From Bacteroidota bacterium (lineage in GTDB: Bacteria > Bacteroidota > Ignavibacteria > SZUA-365 > JAADGX01), in contig JAJRXL010000229.1 in the NCBI GenBank assembly GCA_024276335.1, positions 1 through 13,673 of the forward strand: a stretch of 13,673 nt of DNA, written 5' to 3'. Under the pieces are notes generated by a model that made no database searches, was not told the origin of the DNA, and saw only the letters and a list, made by a program, of their open reading frames with translations. The translations under genes and the position numbers were made by a program. Below are positions 1 through 11,441 of this stretch, piece by piece. The first letter of the stretch is position 1; every line of letters starts with the position of its first letter.

Positions 1-80
1 ATGTTCGGCCCGCGGAGAACCTCGTGCAGCTTCTCGTGAAAGGTCTTGTAATACGCTTCGTTAAAGATCGAATGTGCCAT
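1..80 (-). CDS. Partial CDS of unknown function. Only the N-terminal 26 codons are in the window (MAHSIFNEAYYKTFHEKLHEVLRGPN...). It continues past the left edge.
   Basis: There is an ATG at 80-78 on the minus strand with GGGA 9 nt upstream. The frame stays open to position 1. It lies 17 nt downstream of the stop of the 98..2443 gene, on the same strand. It is too short for the ORF track. I do not recognise a family. Confidence 0.3.
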   Translation of the reverse strand, partial: MAHSIFNEAYYKTFHEKLHEVLRGPN

Positions 81-97
81 CGTGAATCATCCCGGAA

Positions 98-2443
98 TTA
101 ATCTGCTGCCGCCGCCAGCACCGCGGAGGCGATCTCCTCGATAGCGCCGGCGCCGGTGTTGACTACATGCGGACGGGCGGACTGGAACATCCGCCTGAAA
201 AACCTGGCCTGCAGTTCCAGCCTGTCACTTGAACGCACGAGGAGGTGCGGGTTGAAGAACGGCTCGCCGCGGATAGAACCGGGCACGCTGACGGCGCCGG
301 CGCCCGCGTTCTCCAGCATACGAACAGCTTCGTCGGGATATACCTCGACCAACAAAGGGGAAACCGTGTCCCGCTTCAGGATGAACACGTGCTGAATATC
401 CACCCGCTTGACGTGCTTGCGCATGCCCCCGATCCAGTACGGGTCGAGCATGGCGTGGGACTTCTTCGCCGCGATGTAACAGTACGGCGCACCACGGTCG
501 AGCACACAGGAATCCTGCGCCCGGCACTCGTCGTTCCGGCAGTCCTCCTTCCGGGTGACAACGTTCTCGCACTTGCTGCGGTCGAAGAGGACGGTGAAGT
601 CTTCGAACAAGCCCGCCGTATTGGTGGGAATGTACACCTTGCGCTCGGGCAGGTCGGCGGCGGCGTACCCTCCTCCGTATCGCACGATGAGGTAGTCCGG
701 CGCGTGAAACGCCACCTGCTCGTACCGCATCAGGGCAAAATACAGCTCCGTCTTCCGCGTGCCCCTCGGCCCCAGGAGAAGCGTTCCCACCCCGTTCACG
801 TCCAGCGACATGCCGCGGACGCCGTGGGCGTCGAACAACCGCTCGGCGATGTCCGTCACCAGTCCCAGCGCAAGGTTGCGTAGCGAGCCGTAGTGGTCGG
901 CGTTGAACAGGACGCCAGTCTTGGTGTCAGTATTGTAAAAGACGTGCGGCTCCCTTCCCACCACCCCGTCCACGGCGTAGATGATGCCGTGAGGTTCCAG
1001 GTCGGTTTCGAGCTGGGCCGGGTACCAGTTCTCTACCCAGAAGTCGTAGAGGTGCCCGACGTTGGTGCGAAGCTGGATCACTACCCCGTTGATGTTGGCG
1101 TTCCATTCGAAGTAATGGTCGTACTTGAGGTGCGCTTCCGCTTCGGCCACGAGAGCGTCGCGCGATTCCACCGTCACCGCCGATTCTACCGGAACCTGCC
1201 GCTTGACCCTTGTCGTGGCATTGTTGAGTTCGATCTTGACCACCTTGGCGGGCTTTTTCAACTGCTGGAGCGCTTCGGCGATGCGGCTTATGCCTTTCTC
1301 CAGGTTCTCCATGGACGTCGCGTAGGAAATCCGTATGTGATCCGGCGCACCGAAAGCGTCGCCCGGGACGATGGCCACGTTGGCGTGCTTCAGCAGGTAG
1401 TACGCGAGACCGTAGGAGTTGCGGATGGGGGCTCCTTCGAATTCCTTCTCGAAGAACGATGACACGTTGGGGAAGGCGTAGAACGCTCCCTGGGGCATGG
1501 CGCAGGAAACCCCCGGCATGGCCTGCAGCTTGTGTACCACGTAGTTCCGGCGCTTCTCGAACTCCGCCCGCATGCGCCGGATTTCATACTGCGGACCTTC
1601 CAGTGCGGCCAGGGCGGCCATCTGGGAAATCGAGGAGGCGTTGGACGTGCAGTGGCCCTGGACCTTGGACATGGCCTCGATCACGTACCGGGGCGCTGCG
1701 GCGTAACCGATCCGCCAGCCGGTCATGGAGTACGCCTTGGACACGCCGTTGACGAGCACGGTCCTTTCCCGCACGTCGGACCCGAAGGTGGGGATACTTT
1801 TGAAAGGAAACCCGTCGAACACCAGCTTCTCGTAGATCTCGTCCGAGATGATGAACAGCCTTTCCTCCATGCAGATTTCCACGATCCGCTCCAGCTCCTC
1901 CGGGCGATAGCCCGCGCCGGTGGGATTGGACGGGTTGTTGAGAATGATCGCACGCGTGCCCGCGGTGATGGCGTCGCGGAGCTGGTCGGGCGTAAGGCGA
2001 AAACCGTTTTCCTCCAGGGCGCTGACCACGACCGGCACGCCACGCGCCAGCTTGACCATTTCCGGGTACGAGACCCAGTACGGCGTGGGAACGATAACCT
2101 CGTCGCCTTCATTGACCAGGGCCATGATCGCGTTGTAGATCGAGTGCTTGGCGCCGTTGGACACCAGTATCTCATCCGGCTTGTACTCCAGCTTGTGATC
2201 CTCGCGCAACCGCTCGACAATTGCTTGCCGCAGTCGGGGGATGCCCTCGTTGGCGGTGTACCGGGTGAAGTTGTCGTCGATGGCCCGCTTGGCGGCGTCC
2301 TTGATGTTCTGGGGAGTGGGAAAATCCGGCTCGCCCACGCTGAAATCGATGACGTCGATTCCCTGGGCTTTCAGCGCCTTGGCCTTGGCGGTGATCTTCA
2401 GCGTGGGGGAAGCGCCGATGTGGTGTATGCGTTCAGCAATCAC
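98..2443 (-). CDS. Fusion protein (781 aa). The N-terminal part is a class I/II PLP-dependent aminotransferase of the AspC type. The C-terminal ~350 aa is an HprK/PEP-carboxykinase-like P-loop kinase domain.
   Basis: Residues 1-397 (coordinates ~1253..2443) carry the aspartate/aromatic aminotransferase hallmarks. These are GEPDF, NNPSNPTG, the PLP-lysine motif SKAYSMTGWRIGY (Lys236 encoded at 1736..1738) and a C-terminal ...ISYATSMENLEKG. Residues ~430-781 then continue in the same frame with no stop. They contain HGVRGMSLDVNGVGTLLLGPRGTRKTELYFALMRYEQVAFHAPDYLIV, which aligns to the HPr kinase C-domain segment [40 protein letters not shown] (G-x-x-G-x-x-K-T/S-E P-loop). The start is GTG at 2443 with a GAGGA Shine-Dalgarno 5 nt upstream. 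The stop is TAA at 98-100. Confidence 0.8.
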   Translation of the reverse strand: MIAERIHHIGASPTLKITAKAKALKAQGIDVIDFSVGEPDFPTPQNIKDAAKRAIDDNFTRYTANEGIPRLRQAIVERLREDHKLEYKPDEILVSNGAKHSIYNAIMALVNEGDEVIVPTPYWVSYPEMVKLARGVPVVVSALEENGFRLTPDQLRDAITAGTRAIILNNPSNPTGAGYRPEELERIVEICMEERLFIISDEIYEKLVFDGFPFKSIPTFGSDVRERTVLVNGVSKAYSMTGWRIGYAAAPRYVIEAMSKVQGHCTSNASSISQMAALAALEGPQYEIRRMRAEFEKRRNYVVHKLQAMPGVSCAMPQGAFYAFPNVSSFFEKEFEGAPIRNSYGLAYYLLKHANVAIVPGDAFGAPDHIRISYATSMENLEKGISRIAEALQQLKKPAKVVKIELNNATTRVKRQVPVESAVTVESRDALVAEAEAHLKYDHYFEWNANINGVVIQLRTNVGHLYDFWVENWYPAQLETDLEPHGIIYAVDGVVGREPHVFYNTDTKTGVLFNADHYGSLRNLALGLVTDIAERLFDAHGVRGMSLDVNGVGTLLLGPRGTRKTELYFALMRYEQVAFHAPDYLIVRYGGGYAAADLPERKVYIPTNTAGLFEDFTVLFDRSKCENVVTRKEDCRNDECRAQDSCVLDRGAPYCYIAAKKSHAMLDPYWIGGMRKHVKRVDIQHVFILKRDTVSPLLVEVYPDEAVRMLENAGAGAVSVPGSIRGEPFFNPHLLVRSSDRLELQARFFRRMFQSARPHVVNTGAGAIEEIASAVLAAAAD
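101..1156 (-). other. HprK-like / PEPCK-fold P-loop kinase-like domain of the fusion ORF (approx. residues 430-781). It includes a Cys-rich patch.
   Basis: The P-loop GPRGTRKTE is encoded at 746..772, as verified by reverse-complementing the window. The Cys patch C-x10-C-x4-C-x5-C-x8-C is encoded at 479..571. Confidence 0.55.
1253..2443 (-). other. Aminotransferase class I/II domain of the fusion ORF (approx. residues 1-397).
   Basis: The motifs listed for the parent CDS apply. The PLP lysine codon is at 1736..1738. The domain ends with the AspAT-like C-terminus ...RIAEALQQLKK. Confidence 0.75.
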
Positions 2444-2488
2444 GGTAATCCTCGCTGGTTAGGAACGACATGGACGGCAGGCCGGGGG

Positions 2489-3883
2489 TCACTGCTCGCC
2501 GCCGAGCTTGTCCTTGAGGTAGCTCGCAATGTCCACGCCGGTGAGGGACTTGATCACCTCGGGAAGCTGCGCCAGGATTTCGGACACCTGGCCGGTGATT
2601 TTCGATGCTCCCGTAGAACCGTCAGCGCTGCCGACGAGGGTGATTTTCTCGATACGGGAGAGCGGTTCCGCCACGTTCTTGGCCAGGTCGGGAAGAATAT
2701 CGAGCACCATCTTGTACATGGCGGCCTCGTTGAAGTGTTCGAAGGCCTTGGCTTTCTCCAGCAGGGCCTTGGCTTCCGCCTCGCCCAGCTTCATGATGCG
2801 CTCGATCTCGACGTCGTTTTCTTGCCGGCGAGCGATGGCTTTCCCCTCGGACTCCTTGGCCAGGCGATAGCTCTCCGCGTCCGCTTCGGCCAGGACCTGC
2901 GCTTTTCGCGCCTCCGCCGGTTTCAGCACGTTGGCTTCCAGCTCGTTTTGCTTCTTGGCGATGAGCTTTTCCTGGAGACGGGTTTCTTCCTCCGCCTCGA
3001 TGTGTTTCAACTGGTACTCTTCTTTCTTCAATTCCTGGGCGAGCCGCGAGCGCTCCAGCTCGTAGGCCAGGTCCGCCTGTGCTTTCTGCTTGTTCACCGC
3101 GATCTGCGATTTCGCTTTCAGGGTTTCGTTTTCCCACTGGCGGGCCGCCACCTGAGCCTCCGCCTTGAGGCGCGCGATATCGCCTTCTTTCTTCGCTTCG
3201 GACGCCTTGATGATGGCTTCCTTTTCCGCCTCCGCCTCCGCGATAGCCGCCAGCTGCTTGGCCTCGGCGATTTTCGGCTTGCTAAGGGCGTCCAGGTAGC
3301 CTTGCGTATCGCTGATGTCTTTCAGGGAAAAGGAGATCATGGACAGGCCGAGGTTGGCCAGGTCCTTGCTGCTTTCCTCCTGCACCTTGTCGTTGAAAAG
3401 ATGACGATTCTGGTAAATTTCCTCCACCCGCATGGCGCCGATCACTTCCCGTACCTTGCCTTCCAGCACGGTCAGGGCCACTTCGCGGATGCCTTCGTTT
3501 CCCTTGCCCAGGAAGTTCTCGATGCCCAGGTAAGTGTGGTAATCGTCGCTGGTGTCAATCCGGACCTGAGCCGAGCCGTCAGCGAGGATGGGGATGCCAT
3601 CGGCGCTCAGCACCTCCGGGGTCTTGATCCCGATGGTGTTGACCTCAATGGGGAGGGTCTCCGCCCGCTCCACGTAAGGATGGATGTACGTCCCCCCGCC
3701 GAGCTGAAACCGGTAGCCGAGTTCCCGGGTGGAGCCGTCGGGCAGGGTGATGGCGTGTTTTTTCCCGCCGGATATGATGAGGATTTCGTTCGGCCCCGCC
3801 TTGACGTACTTCCGCATGAGAGTGAAGTACAGCACGACGGCGACGATAATTGCGGCAAAGATGATGATTAAAGCGGTGTCCAT
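2489..3883 (-). CDS. Flotillin-like SPFH/band-7 domain protein (FloT/YuaG-like), 464 aa.
   Basis: It has an N-terminal TM helix (LIIIFAAIIVAVVLYFTLM) and an SPFH domain. It has a long Ala/Glu/Lys-rich coiled-coil ('flotillin') region and a C-terminal tail. The ATG at 3883 has a GGAGG Shine-Dalgarno 6 nt upstream. The stop is TGA at 2489. Confidence 0.88.
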   Translation of the reverse strand: MDTALIIIFAAIIVAVVLYFTLMRKYVKAGPNEILIISGGKKHAITLPDGSTRELGYRFQLGGGTYIHPYVERAETLPIEVNTIGIKTPEVLSADGIPILADGSAQVRIDTSDDYHTYLGIENFLGKGNEGIREVALTVLEGKVREVIGAMRVEEIYQNRHLFNDKVQEESSKDLANLGLSMISFSLKDISDTQGYLDALSKPKIAEAKQLAAIAEAEAEKEAIIKASEAKKEGDIARLKAEAQVAARQWENETLKAKSQIAVNKQKAQADLAYELERSRLAQELKKEEYQLKHIEAEEETRLQEKLIAKKQNELEANVLKPAEARKAQVLAEADAESYRLAKESEGKAIARRQENDVEIERIMKLGEAEAKALLEKAKAFEHFNEAAMYKMVLDILPDLAKNVAEPLSRIEKITLVGSADGSTGASKITGQVSEILAQLPEVIKSLTGVDIASYLKDKLGGEQ

Positions 3884-4207: not shown

Positions 4208-4885
4208 CTAATTACCCATAGGATATAGAACCACCACCCAGATCTTGGGTCCATGCACACCCTCTACAAGGACCTTCTCGATGTCCGCCGTTTTGCTCGG
4301 GCCGGCAATGAAAGTCAGGGCCGACGCCCCACTCCCTTTCAGCGAATCGTCCACCACGCTCGATGCACTGTCCAGGTCAGGATGAATACTGTGCACTTCA
4401 ACAAGACATACATGAACCAGGGGAAGAAGGGAAACCATGCGAGATTCATTCGCGCCTGCAAGGGCGAGAATAGCACCGGAATCAGCAAAGGCGGCACGGG
4501 CGGATGTAATTCCCATCGTTCTGCCCTGGTAGTAATTGCGATCGACCCGAGAAGACAGCTTGGTTTCGCCAGGCCAGCGCTCCTCCGACTGCATTCGAGC
4601 CTGGAACTTTTGGCGGTATCCGGCAAGGTCATCCGCGAATACTACCCGTTCCGAGCCATGTTCACGGCAGACCGTCGCGAGGATTCCGGGAATTTCACCC
4701 TCACCGGCGCAATTGTATACCTTGCCCCCGGCCCCAACGACACGTTCCCTGAAAAGCTGTACCAGGTCCTGTTGCGGAATATCGTTCCCGCCTTTGATAG
4801 CGAGTATACGGCGGACTTCTTCGACCGGCGGAACCTCCCATTTGTCCGCGCCAAGGTTGCTGAAAAACCTTTCCCGAGCGCTCAT
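4208..4885 (-). CDS. lutC: Lactate utilization protein C (LUD domain, LutC/YkgG family), 225 aa.
   Basis: The LUD-domain sequence begins at MSARERFFSNLG. The ATG at 4885-4883 overlaps the lutB stop (ATGA). I rejected the longer ORF-track start at 5353 because it runs antisense into lutB. Confidence 0.82.
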   Translation of the reverse strand: MSARERFFSNLGADKWEVPPVEEVRRILAIKGGNDIPQQDLVQLFRERVVGAGGKVYNCAGEGEIPGILATVCREHGSERVVFADDLAGYRQKFQARMQSEERWPGETKLSSRVDRNYYQGRTMGITSARAAFADSGAILALAGANESRMVSLLPLVHVCLVEVHSIHPDLDSASSVVDDSLKGSGASALTFIAGPSKTADIEKVLVEGVHGPKIWVVVLYPMGN

Positions 4886-6294
4886 GTCTGCCCCTCCTTT
4901 CCGCGCCAAAGGTCTTTGAATGTCTTTCGCGGCGGCGATGGAAATGCCCTTTGGACAGACCACCGCGGGACAACCAGGTTCCCTCCCTTGTCTGAAGCCA
5001 GCGGCGCCAAGAATCGCATGATTCTTCCCGCCAGTTGATAAAGAGCGGGTGACTGCATAATCAGGCGCCAGCCCCGGACCAGGAACCGTTCCAGGCTTGG
5101 AGTCCTTTTTTCTCGGACGGCGTTTCCGCGTTGTCGGAGCAAAAGATGGTGCAGATCGATCTTGACCGGGCAGATATCCGTGCATGCTCCGCAGAGCGAA
5201 GAGACAAAAGGATGATACGGCGCTTCCGCCCATCCTTCCAGCGCAGGCGTTATTACCGCCCCGATGGGACCGGAATATACAGAGCCATAGCCGTGTCCGC
5301 CGATGAGCTGGTACACGGGGCAGGTATTCAGACAGGCGCCGCACCGGACGCAATACAATACCTCGCGCAATTCAGGATGCTTCAACATGCGAGCACGACC
5401 GTTGTCGAGGATCACGATGTAGAGCTTCTCCGGACCGTCCTGTTCTCCATTCCGCCTCGGTCCGCGAATAAGCGAGGTATAACTCGTCATCCTCTGTCCG
5501 GTGGCGCTGCGGGCGAGCATCTTCAAAAACAGGCTCAGGCTTGCGGTATCCGGCAGAAGTTTCTCCATCCCCATGACGGCGATGTGCACTCTTGGCAGCG
5601 ATATACTCAAGCGCGCGTTGCCTTCGTTTTCCACGATGCATATCGCGCCCGTATCGGCCACAGCAAAGTTCACGCCCGAGATACCGACGTCCGCCCGGAG
5701 GAATTTCTCGCGCAAGACGCGCCGTGCAATGGCGGTGAGTTGCTCGGGGTCCTCGGTGTATTCCACTCCGAGGCGCTGTTGAAAAAGACGCCCGATATCC
5801 TGCCGCGACTTGTGCAAGGCCGGCGCCGTGATGTGTGATGGAATTTCCCCGGCCAGTTGAACGATGTACTCCCCGAGATCGGTTTCCAGCGTCTCGATGC
5901 CTGCGGCCGTAAGCTTGGGTGCGAGATGAATCTCCTCGGTGACCATCGACTTGGACTTGACAACGAGATGCGCCTCGTGCGACCTGCAAATATCGACGAC
6001 GATCCTTCTCGCCTCCACGGCATCATCGGCATAGAGTACTTCGGCGCCGGCGTCGCGCGCCCGTGATTCGAACTCACGAAGGTACGCAGGAAGATGATCC
6101 ATGACGAGTTTCTTGATCCGATGCGCGGCTTCGCGCATGTTTTCCCAGTCGCGATAGTCCGTCACCACGCGGGCGCGCTTGGCCAAGGAGAGCTCCGTGG
6201 CGCGCAGAACGTTCGTCCTGTACGCCTGGTCGGCGAGTCGCTCGCGAACAAGCGAAGGAAGATTTTGAGGTTCAACAGGCACGTGGAATGACAT
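4882..6294 (-). CDS. lutB: Lactate utilization iron-sulfur protein LutB/YkgF (4Fe-4S binding, DUF3390-containing), 470 aa.
   Basis: It has the motifs CVRCGACLNTCPVY and CGACTDICPV, and an N-terminal LUD-like domain (VVKSKSMVTEEI). The ATG is at 6294. The stop TGA at 4882-4884 overlaps the lutC start. Confidence 0.88.
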   Translation of the reverse strand: MSFHVPVEPQNLPSLVRERLADQAYRTNVLRATELSLAKRARVVTDYRDWENMREAAHRIKKLVMDHLPAYLREFESRARDAGAEVLYADDAVEARRIVVDICRSHEAHLVVKSKSMVTEEIHLAPKLTAAGIETLETDLGEYIVQLAGEIPSHITAPALHKSRQDIGRLFQQRLGVEYTEDPEQLTAIARRVLREKFLRADVGISGVNFAVADTGAICIVENEGNARLSISLPRVHIAVMGMEKLLPDTASLSLFLKMLARSATGQRMTSYTSLIRGPRRNGEQDGPEKLYIVILDNGRARMLKHPELREVLYCVRCGACLNTCPVYQLIGGHGYGSVYSGPIGAVITPALEGWAEAPYHPFVSSLCGACTDICPVKIDLHHLLLRQRGNAVREKRTPSLERFLVRGWRLIMQSPALYQLAGRIMRFLAPLASDKGGNLVVPRWSVQRAFPSPPRKTFKDLWRGKEGQT

Positions 6295-6297
6295 CGT

Positions 6298-7020
6298 TCA
6301 GCCCTCCGCCGCAAGTATGTCGGCAATATGACGAGCGCGGACACGCGATCCCCGCTTTTTCAACACTCCTTCCATCTGCATCAGGCATGAAGAATCGATG
6401 GCAGTGACCACGTCGGCGCCGGATGATTCGATGGCCAGGGCTTTCCGCTCGGCCATTGCTGATGACAATTCTGGAAATTTAACCGCGAAGGTGCCCCCGA
6501 ACCCACAACACGTGTCGCTCAGTTCCAGGTCAACCAGCGTGAGGCCGCGCACCTTTTCAAGGAGAAGCCTGGGTTGGTTCTGAATGCCGAGTTCGCGCAA
6601 GCCATGGCAGGAATGGTGCAACGCCACCTTTCCCCGGAAAGCAGCGCCAACGTCGGCGACACCGACGACGTCGACCAGGAAGGAGGTAAACTCGTGCACC
6701 CGCTCCGCCAGCAACGTGGCGCGTTCCCGGTACCCGTCGTCTTGGGCGAACAGGCGGGGATAAAACACCTTAACCATGGTGACGCAGGAACCGGACGGCG
6801 CGACCACGTATTCCACGTCGGAAAACAGGTCGATGAAACGTTTGGCCAAATGCCGCGCATCTTCGCGGTAGCCTGCATTGAAGGCAGGCTGGCCGCAGCA
6901 CGTCTGCGCGGGGTTGTATCGAATAGAAATTCCGAGGCGTTCCAGGACGCGGACCATGTTCATTCCACTGCGCGGAAACAGTTGATCCGTAAGACAGGGA
7001 ATGAACAGGTCAACGATCAT
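6298..7020 (-). CDS. lutA: Lactate utilization protein A (LutA/YkgE). It is a cysteine-rich CCG-domain Fe-S oxidoreductase of 240 aa.
   Basis: It has two CCG-type Cys motifs (PAQTCCGQP and SDTCCGFGG), and the whole protein looks like a HdrD/GlpC-like subunit. The ATG is at 7020. The stop TGA at 6298 is 3 nt before the lutB ATG. Confidence 0.88.
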   Translation of the reverse strand: MIVDLFIPCLTDQLFPRSGMNMVRVLERLGISIRYNPAQTCCGQPAFNAGYREDARHLAKRFIDLFSDVEYVVAPSGSCVTMVKVFYPRLFAQDDGYRERATLLAERVHEFTSFLVDVVGVADVGAAFRGKVALHHSCHGLRELGIQNQPRLLLEKVRGLTLVDLELSDTCCGFGGTFAVKFPELSSAMAERKALAIESSGADVVTAIDSSCLMQMEGVLKKRGSRVRARHIADILAAEG

Positions 7021-7022
7021 TG

Positions 7023-7964
7023 TTAATCTTCGAAAGTCTGGAGGTAGTGCTCTGCGTCGATCGCCGCCATGCAGCCGGAGCCTGCAGCGGTTATCGCCTG
7101 GCGGTACTTGCTGTCCTGGACGTCGCCGCAGGCGAAGACGCCGTCCAAATTCGTCTCGGTGGATTTCGCCTTCGTGATGATGTATCCCTTTTCGTCCATT
7201 TCGATAACGCCCTTGAACAGGTCCGTATTCGGTTTATGACCGATCCCGATGAATAGGCCGTCCACCTTCATTTCCGATATTTCACCCGTCTTTGTATCCT
7301 TCAAGCGCAGGCCGGTGACTTTTTTCCTTCCGTTTTCTTCCGTGCCTAGCACCTCTTCCACTACGCTGTTCAACCGGAACTCGATCTTCGGATTACTCTT
7401 CGCCCGCCTTTGCATGATGTGGGAGGCACGGAGTTCATCCCGGTGGTGGATGATCGTGACTTTCGAAGCGAACTTGGTGAGAAATATCGCTTCTTCCATG
7501 GCGGTATCTCCTCCTCCCACGACGGCGACTTCGAGATCTTTGAAGAAGAAACCATCGCACGTCGCGCAGGCGGAAACGCCAAAGCCCATGTACTTCGCTT
7601 CACTTTCCAGCCCCAGCAGCCGGGCGGATGCGCCCGTCGCGATGATCACGACGTCACAGGTCCATTCCTTCTCCCCGACCCACAGGCGAAACGGTCGATC
7701 CCCGAAATCGATTTTATCCACGTACTCGAAAAGCGATTCCGCACCGAATCGTTGTGCCTGTTTGCGCATATCGTCCATGAGTTTCGGCCCCATGACCCCC
7801 TCGGGGAAGCCGGGGAAATTCTCCACTTCCGTGGTGATGGTCAACTGGCCGCCGGGCTGTTCGCCCTCGAAGACAAGCGGCTGCAAATCCGCGCGGGCGG
7901 CGTACAGGGCGGCGGTCAATCCCGCCGGCCCCGATCCGATGATAATGACTTTTCTGTGTTCCAT
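7023..7964 (-). CDS. trxB: Thioredoxin-disulfide reductase (NADPH, FAD), 313 aa.
   Basis: The motifs are GSGPAG (FAD), the redox-active CATCDG, the GGGDTAMEEA NADPH site and the C-terminal GDVQD...AAGSGCMAA. The ATG is at 7964. The stop TAA at 7023-7025 lies 2 nt from the lutA ATG. Confidence 0.92.
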   Translation of the reverse strand: MEHRKVIIIGSGPAGLTAALYAARADLQPLVFEGEQPGGQLTITTEVENFPGFPEGVMGPKLMDDMRKQAQRFGAESLFEYVDKIDFGDRPFRLWVGEKEWTCDVVIIATGASARLLGLESEAKYMGFGVSACATCDGFFFKDLEVAVVGGGDTAMEEAIFLTKFASKVTIIHHRDELRASHIMQRRAKSNPKIEFRLNSVVEEVLGTEENGRKKVTGLRLKDTKTGEISEMKVDGLFIGIGHKPNTDLFKGVIEMDEKGYIITKAKSTETNLDGVFACGDVQDSKYRQAITAAGSGCMAAIDAEHYLQTFED

Positions 7965-7982
7965 AGTCTCTTGTATTTTCGT

Positions 7983-8966
7983 TCAACAATTGTCGTTTTC
8001 GTAAGATGAACGTGACGCGAAAACGGTTCCGGCGTTGCGTCGAAATCCTTTGGGCCTGGCACGGCTGACCGGGCTTCCACGAAATTTCCGCCGGAAATCC
8101 TCGTCCGACATATTCATTGCTTCCCGGACGCTAAGTTGCAGTATTCCCGCTCGTGGCGCAAATCCGGGCACGGCGGTTTCCTTCGCGAAAGAATTCCACG
8201 GACATACATCCTGGCATATGTCGCACCCGAATATCCATTCTCCCAGTTTTTCTGCCACTTCGCCTGGGATCGTATCGCCGCGGTTCTCAATCGTCTGGTA
8301 CGAGATGCACAGGTTGGAATCCAGGACGTACGGCTCGACGATTGCCCCGGTTGGACAGGCGTCGATACAGGCGCGACACGTTCCACAATAATCGAGAACA
8401 GGATTGTCATGGAGAAACTCAACCGTGCTGATGATGACACCGAGGAATATCCAGGAGCCAGCGTCCCGCGTAATGATATTGGTATGCTTTCCCTGCCAGC
8501 CGATCCCGGACTTGGTCGCCCACGCTTTCTCCATGACCGGTCCCGTGTCCACGTATATCTTGCAGGATACGCCGGGGAACCGTTCTTTCAGCTCTGCCCG
8601 GAACCGCTCAAGCCCGGACAACATGATCTCGTGGTAATCGTCACCCCAGGCATACCTGGAGACGCGAACGGTATCATCGTTCTCCCGATGCTTCACGGGC
8701 GTGTAGTAATTCATCCCGACGCAAATCACGCTGCGGGCGTCCGGCAAAATTCGAGTTACATCGGATCGTTTTACAGGATCACGCGCCATCCAGTTCATTC
8801 CCGCGTGAAATCCCCGCTCCAGCCATTCCAGCAAGTGCGTTCGTTCCCTCGACAATGGCTCCGCGGGCGCTATGCCGACATGAGTGAAGCCGTATGTCTG
8901 CAGCCGGTTTTTCACCCAGCAGGTTCGGTCCTGTAGCTCCCGGAGTGTAGCAGGTGAATTCACCAT
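7983..8966 (-). CDS. queG: Epoxyqueuosine reductase (tRNA queuosine biosynthesis; cobalamin/4Fe-4S), 327 aa.
   Basis: From MVNSPATLRELQ... onward it aligns with QueG. The matching segments are LPDARSVICVGMNYY, SRYAWGDDYHEIM, CGTCRACIDACPTG and CDICQDVCPWN. The ATG at 8966-8964 is followed immediately by the Rieske-gene stop (ATGgTGA). The upstream extension to 9128 runs antisense into the Rieske ORF, so I rejected it. Confidence 0.85.
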   Translation of the reverse strand: MVNSPATLRELQDRTCWVKNRLQTYGFTHVGIAPAEPLSRERTHLLEWLERGFHAGMNWMARDPVKRSDVTRILPDARSVICVGMNYYTPVKHRENDDTVRVSRYAWGDDYHEIMLSGLERFRAELKERFPGVSCKIYVDTGPVMEKAWATKSGIGWQGKHTNIITRDAGSWIFLGVIISTVEFLHDNPVLDYCGTCRACIDACPTGAIVEPYVLDSNLCISYQTIENRGDTIPGEVAEKLGEWIFGCDICQDVCPWNSFAKETAVPGFAPRAGILQLSVREAMNMSDEDFRRKFRGSPVSRARPKGFRRNAGTVFASRSSYENDNC

Positions 8967-9301
8967 TCGATAGAATCGTGTCGCTCCGGAACACGAACAT
9001 GGATTTTGTCGCCTATCACCCGGACCTCGAAGGTTCTCAGTCCCGGAAGGCCGTTGGGCATAGCGCCTGTTTCCAGATGGAACTGCCAGCCGTGCAACGG
9101 ACAGGCCACGTACATGTTCTCCACGCATCCCTCGGCAATGAGAGGCGAATGCTGGTGCGGGCAGATGTTGCTTACCGCGTAGTATTTGTCTTTGACACGG
9201 AAGATGGCGATTTCCTCATCGTTGATTGTCCTGACCGCCCCGCCGGCTTCCGTAATGTCCCGGATATGGGCTGCGCGAACAAACCCCTTGTCGTCACTCA
9301 C
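8960..9301 (-). CDS. Rieske [2Fe-2S] domain protein (NirD-like small Rieske ferredoxin), 113 aa.
   Basis: It has the CPH motif (..ICPHQHSPL..) and CPLHGW, and the NirD-like N-terminus ...AGGAVRTINDEEIAIFRV. The GTG start at 9301-9299 overlaps the stop of the MBL gene (GTGAGTGA). The stop is TGA at 8960-8962. Confidence 0.8.
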   Translation of the reverse strand: MSDDKGFVRAAHIRDITEAGGAVRTINDEEIAIFRVKDKYYAVSNICPHQHSPLIAEGCVENMYVACPLHGWQFHLETGAMPNGLPGLRTFEVRVIGDKIHVRVPERHDSIEW

Positions 9302-10262: not shown

Positions 10263-10595
10263 TTACCGTCCCAACTCGTCCAGGTACTTGACTTTTTCCA
10301 GGAGTTGCTCTTTCGTTTCCCTGTGGTTCGGATCCGGGACGCAACAGTCAACGGGACAAACCGCCGCGCACTGAGGCTCGTCGTGAAACGTTTCGCACTC
10401 GGTGCACTTGTCGGGCACGATGTAGAAGAAGTCGGCGCTCCAGAAACCCGTGGCGCCGGAAGGAGCAGGGTCACCTTCTCCGTACGTCTTGCCGCCGAGT
10501 TCCCAATCCGCGCCGCCCTCGTAAATCGCGTTGTTCGGGCATTCCGGTTCGCATGCACCGCAGTTGATGCATTCATCAGTGATCATTAAAGCCAT
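10263..10595 (-). CDS. 2[4Fe-4S] ferredoxin of the Alvin/YfhL type, with an extended inter-cluster insertion, 110 aa.
   Basis: The first cluster motif is [12 protein letters not shown]. The second is [18 protein letters not shown] (CxxCx8CxxxCP). The ATG at 10595 has a GGAAGGAA Shine-Dalgarno. The stop is TAA at 10263. Confidence 0.88.
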
Positions 10596-10720
10596 GGTAA
10601 AATTCCTTCCAATGGTGGGTTCATGTGTTAGATTGGAATGAAGTCAGGGAAAAAAATCCTCGCTCTTTCAAAAGGCTTCCAGGTGTCTTTCTATACAGTG
10701 AATTCGCAGCCAGGACACTG

Positions 10721-10749
10721 TTGCAACTTATGAAAGAACCGTGTATCAA
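10721..10749 (+). promoter_or_regulatory. Putative sigma70 promoter for the DUF192-methyltransferase operon.
   Basis: It reads TTGCAA (10721-10726), a 17-nt spacer, then TATCAA (10744-10749). It sits in the AT-richer divergent intergenic region between the ferredoxin gene (minus) and the DUF192 gene (plus). Confidence 0.35.
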
Positions 10750-10871
10750 CCGCTTTCACCTGTTAAAAAGTTACTATGTTCATCGATATAAACCAAACAG
10801 ACAACCCTGGGAAATCAAGGGAAAACACTATCTTGGTTATGAAACATGTTTCAAATGACAGGAAAAACGTG

Positions 10872-11441
10872 ATGACCAGAAAAGAGAAGCCCGCTTCCGA
10901 ACCCGAACAACCAATTGGAAAAAACAACAACCGTAAATACATTCTCATCGGCGCGGTTGCCGTGATCATCATCGCAATCGTGCTTATCATCACACGTTCT
11001 CCAGAACCCACCCGAATAGACACCGGCTCCGTCCCCCATCCCACGCCTTCGACATCATTCCGCAACGACGGGGTCCTGATCTTTTCCTCCGCCGACGGTC
11101 AACAGAAAGCGCGCATTACTATCGAGATCGCTAAAACCGAAGAACAACGAACACAGGGTATGATGGGCCGCACCGGATTCGACTTCACGAAAGGCATGCT
11201 TTTCATCTTCGATAACGAAGAGGAGCGCGCCTTCTGGATGGCCAATACACCGACATCACTCGATATTATCTTCATTAACCGGAAAAAGGAGATCGTCAAG
11301 ATCCATCCCCGGACCGAACCGTATTCAACCGATTCCTACCCTTCCGAGCGACCTGCAAAGTACGTTGTCGAGACCCTGGGGGGGTTCTGCGCGCGGTTCG
11401 GCATCGAGGAAGGCGATAGGATCTCCTGGCTGGCGGAATGA
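10872..11441 (+). CDS. DUF192 (COG1430) domain protein with an N-terminal membrane anchor, 189 aa.
   Basis: It has the TM helix YILIGAVAVIIIAIVLIIT, followed by the DUF192 core (...GMLFIFDNEEERAFWMANTPTSLDIIF...). The ATG at 10872 has an AGGA about 9 nt upstream. Upstream in-frame ATGs at 10776 and 10839 lack a Shine-Dalgarno. The stop TGA at 11439-11441 overlaps the next ATG. Confidence 0.75.
   Translation: MTRKEKPASEPEQPIGKNNNRKYILIGAVAVIIIAIVLIITRSPEPTRIDTGSVPHPTPSTSFRNDGVLIFSSADGQQKARITIEIAKTEEQRTQGMMGRTGFDFTKGMLFIFDNEEERAFWMANTPTSLDIIFINRKKEIVKIHPRTEPYSTDSYPSERPAKYVVETLGGFCARFGIEEGDRISWLAE

Follow-up and report, generated by a model that had tools for sequence, protein, structure and literature searches.

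We analysed a 13,673-nucleotide stretch of a Bacteroidota genome from the Ignavibacteria (assembly GCA_024276335.1, contig JAJRXL010000229.1; the whole stretch is called the window below) and found that its minus-strand gene at positions 98 to 2443 encodes a complete aminotransferase fused in frame to a domain modelled as a trimmed phosphoenolpyruvate carboxykinase (PEPCK). The fusion is a real gene. A scan with one genome per species found a relative encoded in 427 species, and 79 of the 80 best loci have aminotransferase and C-terminal domain in one open reading frame (ORF) of about 780 codons. The C-terminal domain, here termed mini-PEPCK, is a trimmed paralogue of ATP-dependent PEPCK, and in most related loci the fusion gene lies between genes for a flotillin-type protein and a PEPCK-like protein that retains the known catalytic motifs. 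We tentatively propose, at a probability of about 0.45, that the module works at the aspartate-oxaloacetate-phosphoenolpyruvate (PEP) node, with the mini-PEPCK domain partnering or regulating the neighboring PEPCK so that aspartate, oxaloacetate and PEP are interconverted as one unit.

A genuine fusion gene

The fusion gene and its parts lie as follows:

98..2443, minus: whole fusion ORF, 781 amino acids plus stop (stop codon 98-100; GTG start 2443-2441)
1259..2443, minus: aminotransferase domain, residues 1-395, subgroup Ib aspartate aminotransferase type (PF00155, NF004769, 1j32)
1736..1738, minus: codon of the pyridoxal phosphate (PLP)-binding Lys236 in SKAYSMTGWR (from sequence; aligned to AKTYAMTGWR of 1j32)
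1229..1258, minus: short hinge, residues ~396-405, leading from the final helix of the aminotransferase into the first strand of the C-terminal domain (full-length AlphaFold model)
101..1228, minus: mini-PEPCK-fold domain, residues ~406-781

The GTG start has a GAGGA motif 7 nt upstream, and the resulting N-terminus, MIAERI, agrees with MISERI/MLSDRV in homologues. An earlier note, made from the sequence of the window, had described a single uninterrupted 781-codon ORF at these positions; the frame is as described, and its strand, which the note did not state, is the minus strand, as fixed by the PF00155 match (E 3.4e-80). A plus-strand ORF of 779 aa (1532..3871) was considered and rejected as a high-GC shadow ORF, the minus-strand match being decisive. 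All peptides quoted in the earlier note were recovered, namely SKAYS at residues 235-239, SYATSMENLEKG at 373-384 and HGVRGMSLDVNGVGTLLLGPRGTRKTE... at 540-587.

We compared the N-terminal half to aminotransferases of known structure. PF00155 covers residues 30-388 with 270.4 bits against a gathering cutoff of 19.7, and Lys236 aligns with the PLP lysine of 1j32, as expected for the full class-I/II enzyme with its PLP lysine in SKAYS that had been read from the sequence. The PLP motif SK(A/T)(Y/F)xMTGWR is present as S235-K236-AYSMTGWR. The closest solved structure by sequence is the aspartate aminotransferase (AspAT) 1j32 (E 8e-114), followed by 6f35, 5wmh and 1bjw. The 395 N-terminal residues align end to end with AspATs of subgroup Ib (Phormidium lapideum 1j32, Thermus thermophilus 1bjw, Rhizobium AatA/AatB and the plant prephenate aminotransferase 5wmh; E 8e-114 to 1e-91) and have in common with them the PLP lysine motif and the lysine of the NGxK segment, whereas a C-terminal extension of 386 aa is added in the fusion. 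As judged by these alignments the N-terminal module is a subgroup-Ib aspartate aminotransferase, predicted to interconvert aspartate and 2-oxoglutarate with oxaloacetate and glutamate. The top NCBIfam models are likewise aspartate transaminases, both scoring under their equivalog cutoffs (NF004769, 444 versus 617 bits; NF041091, 427 versus 550 bits), and these scores do not certify the exact specificity. Relative to 1j32, the domain has a nine-residue insertion, FEKEFEGAP, at residues ~331-339 (1427-1453, minus strand), which is kept among the fusion proteins and is followed by the strongly conserved IRNSYGLAYYLLK.

In a full-length AlphaFold model both domains are well folded (mean predicted local distance difference test score (pLDDT) 88.5), although the predicted template-modelling score (pTM) is 0.59. 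The earlier note had placed a linker without a break at residues ~398-430. The junction is indeed unbroken, but the linker is much shorter than thought: only residues ~396-405 are poorly ordered in the model, with pLDDT <50 at residues 401-403. A search for homologues with the same two-domain architecture returned, besides the single-ORF loci mentioned above, a 782-aa orthologue in the cultured isolate Caldithrix abyssi DSM 13497. The loci come from Ignavibacteria, Calditrichota, Aminicenantes/Acidobacteriota, Fischerbacteria and others, and it is this presence of one intact ORF in several phyla and in an isolate that practically excludes an assembly artefact. The fusion is thus genuine, as had been proposed: a complete class-I aminotransferase is followed in frame by a P-loop domain that belongs to the structural superfamily of PEPCK and HprK.

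The two halves were also sought as separate genes. The split versions that we found do not represent two genes: they are frameshifts in long-read assemblies (L002, L003 and L042) or a run of N (L001), and the frameshifts fall inside the aminotransferase domain, not at the junction. Short contigs, the N gap in L001 and the long-read frameshifts in L002 and L003 also account for fragmentary homologue records, the longest of which in the protein database search has 663 aa. The frameshifts in L002 (~7700-7950) and L003 (~7900-8040) both fall within one short stretch around residues 335-345, a little apart from each other, and are probably homopolymer errors. A programmed frameshift at this place was rejected, since the positions differ and short-read assemblies are intact. 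An in-frame selenocysteine or stop codon, suspected from the fragment-only protein records, was rejected as well, because genome loci carry intact ORFs. The protein database gave only shortened fusions, yet full-length neighbors from the same contigs are present there, which suggests a peculiarity of the database or its index and not a biological effect.

Fold, predicted active site and relatives of the C-terminal domain

The C-terminal domain (residues ~396-781) matches no Pfam family, and neither the NCBIfam models nor a plain sequence search of the PDB gave a significant match to it. A family profile of the domain searched against PDB sequences returned only borderline matches to the P-loop of HprK (E 0.011-0.05). 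The earlier note had assigned the domain to the HPr kinase/phosphorylase C-domain, a reading that is not upheld by HprK profiles, all of which score under their cutoffs: TIGR00679 gives 15.4 bits on the window protein against a cutoff of 240, and PF07475, which had been suggested for residues 430-781, does not match the window protein and reaches 12-27 bits in homologues against a cutoff of 33.3. The PEPCK family PF01293 does not match the window protein even at E <= 1, and only distant relatives show PF01293 matches, which are sub-threshold (18-24 bits, cutoff 26.5).

The assignment comes from structure comparison, in which PEPCKs are matched far more strongly and over the whole domain (score; residues aligned):

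ATP-PEPCK, T. cruzi 1ii2_B: 30.0; 340 of 386
GTP-PEPCK: 22.1; 350
PEPCK-like complex-I subunit of Euglena: 19.0; 268
Pyrophosphate-dependent PEPCK: 16.6; 353
HprK/P: 13.5; 135

Foldseek likewise finds ATP-PEPCKs at E ~1e-16 with a query TM-score of 0.66-0.74. Because these matches extend across the whole domain, and both lobes of the PEPCK fold are found in it, we conclude that the modelled domain is a trimmed PEPCK fold with two lobes in about 375 aa, which shares only the core with the HprK kinase domain. Compared with ATP-PEPCK (PckA; PF01293; T. cruzi 1ii2, E. coli 1aq2), which has 540 aa, the domain has a shorter adenine-binding segment at its C-terminus, carries a Cys/His insert in place of the hairpin leading to Arg333, and is fused to an aminotransferase. 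With the HPr kinase/phosphorylase C-domain (PF07475; 1jb1, 1ko7) it has in common the P-loop core and the preceding segment, ...[H/R]G....G.G.L..G..G.[GK]K[ST]E. The HprK layout, an N-terminal domain plus a kinase domain of ~170 aa with HPr/phosphotransferase system (PTS) partner genes, is not found in the fusion, and the HprK call made from sequence is a weak lead.

We mapped PEPCK active site residues onto the domain using profile alignments and spacing, and counted conservation in 84 orthologues. The mapping is supported by the Tyr-to-His/Arg spacing, which is 25 residues in both E. coli PckA and the C-terminal domain. In E. coli PckA numbering, the predicted equivalents are:

Tyr207: Y518 (84/84)
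Lys212/Lys213: S523/L524, with R522 one position earlier (R522 82/84)
His232 (Mn ligand): R543 (84/84)
P-loop GLSGTGKTT: GPxGT[KR]K[TS][ED] (K564 83/84; T/S565 81/84; G558 and G561 84/84)
Asp268/Asp269: N/P582 and D583 (D583 83/84)
Lys288: P606 (P in 72/84)

The corresponding features in the window are:

815..817, minus: codon of Arg543, at the place of PEPCK His232 and of the conserved HprK His (spacing; HprK alignment)
746..772, minus: modified P-loop G558-P-R-G-T-R-K564-T565-E566 (aligned to PEPCK GLSGTGKTT)
470..571, minus: Cys-rich insert, residues 625-658, with a putative four-ligand metal site (C635, C640, C646, C655)

The Mn2+ ligand set Lys213/His232/Asp269 is not kept, its places apparently being taken by Leu524, Arg543 and Asp583. 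As two of the three Mn ligands are replaced, we infer that the mini-PEPCK domain is not a canonical PEPCK. The residue before the Walker lysine, a glycine in PEPCK and HprK, is K, R, N or H across the orthologues, with Lys/Arg in the consensus. R601/K602, E626/N627, N731 and N762 are invariant. Alignments of the Arg65/Arg333 region are unreliable, and possible equivalents are R650 (R in 56/84, K in 10/84) or a K/R within 396-405. Several divergent matches, among which P0041, P0062, P0066 and P0107 are shown to be fused, have R, L or G for the Walker lysine or a degenerate P-loop, and the other core residues remain invariant in these matches.

The Cys-rich insert has no counterpart in the PEPCK or HprK sequences aligned. 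C635 and C646 are each present in 82/84 orthologues; position 640 is C in 66 and H in 16, and position 655 is C in 68 and S in 16. The sixteen orthologues with His640 have Ser655, and a new cysteine at position 658 was present in 13 of the 13 such variants inspected. Because a His640/Ser655/Cys658 swap of this kind is typical of four-ligand metal sites, it suggests that the insert forms such a site rather than disulfides.

The domain also occurs outside the fusion. Stand-alone mini-PEPCK or HprK-related proteins of 350-570 aa (P0101, P0112, P0114 and P0124) contain the same domain at 27-38% identity, many with the Cys-rich insert, but they lack a fusion partner and occur in unrelated gene contexts; P0101 and P0112 carry a weak PF27840 label (ScmC, an HprK-related family). 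No aminotransferase or PEPCK neighbor was found in the contexts of P0101, P0112, P0117 and P0111. The stand-alone relatives keep the canonical GxGKT, His and DD motifs, which indicates that the predicted active site of the fused clade is derived, but it is strongly conserved. In archaeal-looking contigs (L086-L088; gene L086:8001-10700) with TFIIE-like and V4R neighbors, an 899-aa protein, P0123, has the mini-PEPCK domain fused directly to a PEPCK-like protein, the domain having lost its P-loop and Cys insert. P0123 is a second, independent fusion architecture of the mini-PEPCK domain and provides Rosetta-stone evidence that this domain and the PEPCK-like protein act together.

Gene neighborhood and the rest of the window

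Synteny was counted over the complete set of 83 related loci (L001-L083). Immediately upstream of the fusion, 81/83 have a flotillin-type Band 7 gene, and about 70/83 have a gene for a 613-aa PEPCK-like protein immediately downstream, in a tight operon with the order flotillin, fusion, PEPCK-like gene. The median gap on each side of the fusion is 27 nt, some genes overlap, and an NDK gene sometimes follows. Caldithrix abyssi has the same three genes. In the window the neighbors are:

2489..3883, minus: flotillin-type SPFH/Band 7 gene, directly upstream with a 45-nt gap (PF01145, E 1.8e-27; synteny)
1..80, minus: start of the PEPCK-like gene, 26 aa MAHSIFNEAYYKTFHEKLHEVLRGPN, cut by the window end (matches MAKDIYNNDYYKKFHEQLLPLLNGPNIK... 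in the loci)

The start of the PEPCK-like gene (position 80) lies 17 nt past the fusion stop. Its orthologue matches PF01293 with E 5.5e-22 and 78.5 bits (cutoff 26.5), does not reach the NF006821 subfamily cutoff (286 versus 369), and is publicly annotated as 'phosphoenolpyruvate carboxykinase (ATP)', e.g. Calab_3641. The motifs YxGExKKG, His232, GK[ST], DD, Lys288 and Arg333 are kept, as YIGEDKKG, LHSG(H232), TATGKST, QDD, YVKT and GNGR align with the E. coli and A. succiniciproducens PEPCKs. The fused C-terminal domain and this neighbor are distant paralogues (hhalign E 8e-5); the neighbor reaches PF01293 and keeps all PEPCK catalytic motifs, whereas the fused domain does neither. A complete PEPCK therefore already appears to be supplied by the neighboring gene.

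The flotillin gene stays upstream across several phyla even where the PEPCK-like gene is absent (loci L002-L083, L092), so that a flotillin and an enzyme of metabolism are linked in a conserved way.

The other genes of the window encode LutABC, TrxB, QueG, a metallo-β-lactamase-fold protein, a DUF192 protein, an O-methyltransferase and TrkA. The lactate-utilization cluster LutA/LutB/LutC is complete (4208-7020, minus strand; CCG, LUD plus 4Fe-4S, and LUD domains); the listed 381-aa ORF at 4208..5353 over-extends LutC into LutB, the LUD domain covering roughly 4208-4900 only. The ORF of QueG, the epoxyqueuosine reductase (7983-9128, minus strand), has an Arg/Gly-rich stretch of ~55 aa before the methionine of MVNSPATL, and this internal methionine is probably the real start. 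The G+C content falls to 0.44 in the 500-bp window 10501-11000, compared with 0.55-0.60 elsewhere. This low-G+C stretch spans the gap (~10590-10775) between two divergent ORFs, one ending near 10590 and the DUF192 gene at 10776, and the gap is likely to be a promoter region that the two share. Scanning the window for Rfam families and tRNAs gave no hits.

Possible functions of the fusion

The mini-PEPCK domain is found fused to AspAT and to PEPCK, and both of these use oxaloacetate. In the reading that we favor, the mini-PEPCK module would be a nucleotide- or phosphate-binding partner that docks onto the neighboring PEPCK or regulates it. Oxaloacetate made by the transaminase would then be handed directly to PEPCK, from aspartate via oxaloacetate to PEP and CO2, or alternatively the flow would run in reverse, in the carboxylating direction. 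The flotillin may hold the assembly at the membrane.

Several points weigh against this proposal. Contact between the C-terminal domain and the PEPCK-like protein is hypothetical, as is the part that the flotillin may play, which is deduced from synteny. The full-length monomer model, with its pTM of 0.59, contains no confident interface or orientation between the aminotransferase and the C-terminal domain, so it lends no support to a channelling geometry. PEPCK residues were assigned to positions in the domain from sequence spacing and profile alignments. In about 10% of the loci, an Aminicenantes subgroup, no PEPCK-like gene follows, and unrelated genes (for an acyltransferase, a SIS-domain protein and a PMT_2 protein) are found downstream instead. 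Finally, in the main clade, the window protein included, there is hardly any variation in the P-loop or in about 20 polar residues that surround the predicted cleft, and this suits a site for catalysis no less than one for docking or regulation.

This near-invariance leads to an alternative that we consider somewhat unlikely, in which the fusion is a self-contained bifunctional enzyme. Here the C-terminal domain would itself be catalytic, as a PEPCK-type or other small-molecule kinase/decarboxylase that acts on the oxo-acid product of the transaminase, with Arg543/Arg522 and the Cys/His metal site in place of the Mn site, and the neighboring PEPCK would represent a separate or complementary activity. 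Conservation of G558/G561/K564/T565, D583, R543, R601/K602, E626/N627 and Y518 across the 84 orthologues is consistent with this, as is the retention of both PEPCK lobes (340 residues aligned). The canonical motifs of the stand-alone relatives make the wider family look enzymatic, and fusion with an oxaloacetate-forming transaminase is a classic signature of consecutive steps. However, two of the three Mn ligands are gone, Lys288 is replaced by Pro, and equivalents of Arg333/Arg65 are not identifiable. The glycine before the Walker lysine has become Lys/Arg, the Walker lysine is not retained in several divergent matches, the fused P0041, P0062 and P0066 among them, and the domain in P0123 is wholly without a P-loop. 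A complete PEPCK next door in ~85% of loci would moreover make a second one redundant. The bolder proposal, which is unlikely in our estimate, is that the domain is a new PEPCK-fold enzyme with an invariant arginine and a Cys/His metal site instead of the Mn center, and the fusion a dedicated aspartate-PEP machine that works in both directions, either alone or in a flotillin-organized membrane complex with PEPCK. It would then constitute a previously unrecognized, widespread route at the PEP-pyruvate-oxaloacetate node of Ignavibacteria, Calditrichota, Aminicenantes and related uncultured phyla.

We give decidedly little credence to an allosteric sensor, in which a non-catalytic C-terminal domain would bind ATP/ADP, PEP or oxaloacetate and tune the fused aminotransferase independently of PEPCK. 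A conserved phosphate-binding loop without the full catalytic set would suit such a role, and the fusion persists at loci that have no adjacent PEPCK-like gene. There is also precedent at the same metabolic node for an inactive, enzyme-like regulatory domain, the phosphotransacetylase-like domain fused to malic enzymes (PMC8100219). A sensor would, however, leave unexplained both the fusion to PEPCK in P0123 and the tight operon with the PEPCK-like gene, and no confident interface with the aminotransferase is predicted.

The earlier note had further suggested a protein or peptide Ser kinase resembling HprK, as in lasso-peptide or other clusters for ribosomally synthesized and post-translationally modified peptides (RiPPs), which together with the transaminase would form a peptide-modifying enzyme. 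HprK shows that protein phosphorylation is possible with this fold, profile similarity to the HprK P-loop region is detectable, if weak (E 0.008-0.05), two homologues reach 26-27 bits with PF07475, and distant stand-alone relatives bear the weak PF27840 label. These scores nevertheless all stay under the family cutoffs, and the PEPCK match is far stronger and spans the whole domain. Neither the window nor the conserved neighborhood contains a gene for a precursor peptide, a cyclase, a protease, a PqqD-like protein or PTS/HPr; in place of RiPP, lasso-peptide or PTS genes, a flotillin and a PEPCK gene lie nearby. We thus regard a Ser kinase as highly improbable. The chance that two ordinary adjacent genes were joined by an assembly or sequencing error is negligible: some database entries are split, but inside the aminotransferase domain or at N gaps rather than at the junction, and the same ORF recurs in 79 of 80 independent assemblies from several phyla and in an isolate genome.

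In a full-text literature search, we found neither the fusion nor the mini-PEPCK domain nor the flotillin-transaminase-PEPCK cluster described, nor any characterized enzyme that combines a transaminase with an HprK/PEPCK-fold domain, in agreement with the earlier note. Both domains belong to known superfamilies; what is new is the uncharacterized and widespread fusion, its derived active site and the unexplained link to a flotillin. Public annotation names the fusion 'pyridoxal phosphate-dependent aminotransferase' only, and metabolic reconstructions of the phyla that carry it consequently miss its second half.

Oxaloacetate is unstable and scarce in cells, and its handover between enzymes is a long-standing question in central metabolism. 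The gene described here physically ties an oxaloacetate-forming transaminase to a PEPCK-type module, next to a complete PEPCK and a gene for a membrane scaffold, the flotillin. More than 400 species, for the most part uncultured anaerobes that degrade protein, share this arrangement. Should its parts assemble into a complex, they would represent a natural, genetically encoded channel from aspartate via oxaloacetate to PEP, and a rare bacterial flotillin linked to a defined metabolic enzyme. If instead the domain is catalytic, it would be a PEPCK fold with a remodelled, Mn-free active site. As Caldithrix abyssi DSM 13497 contains the same three genes, the question is directly testable.

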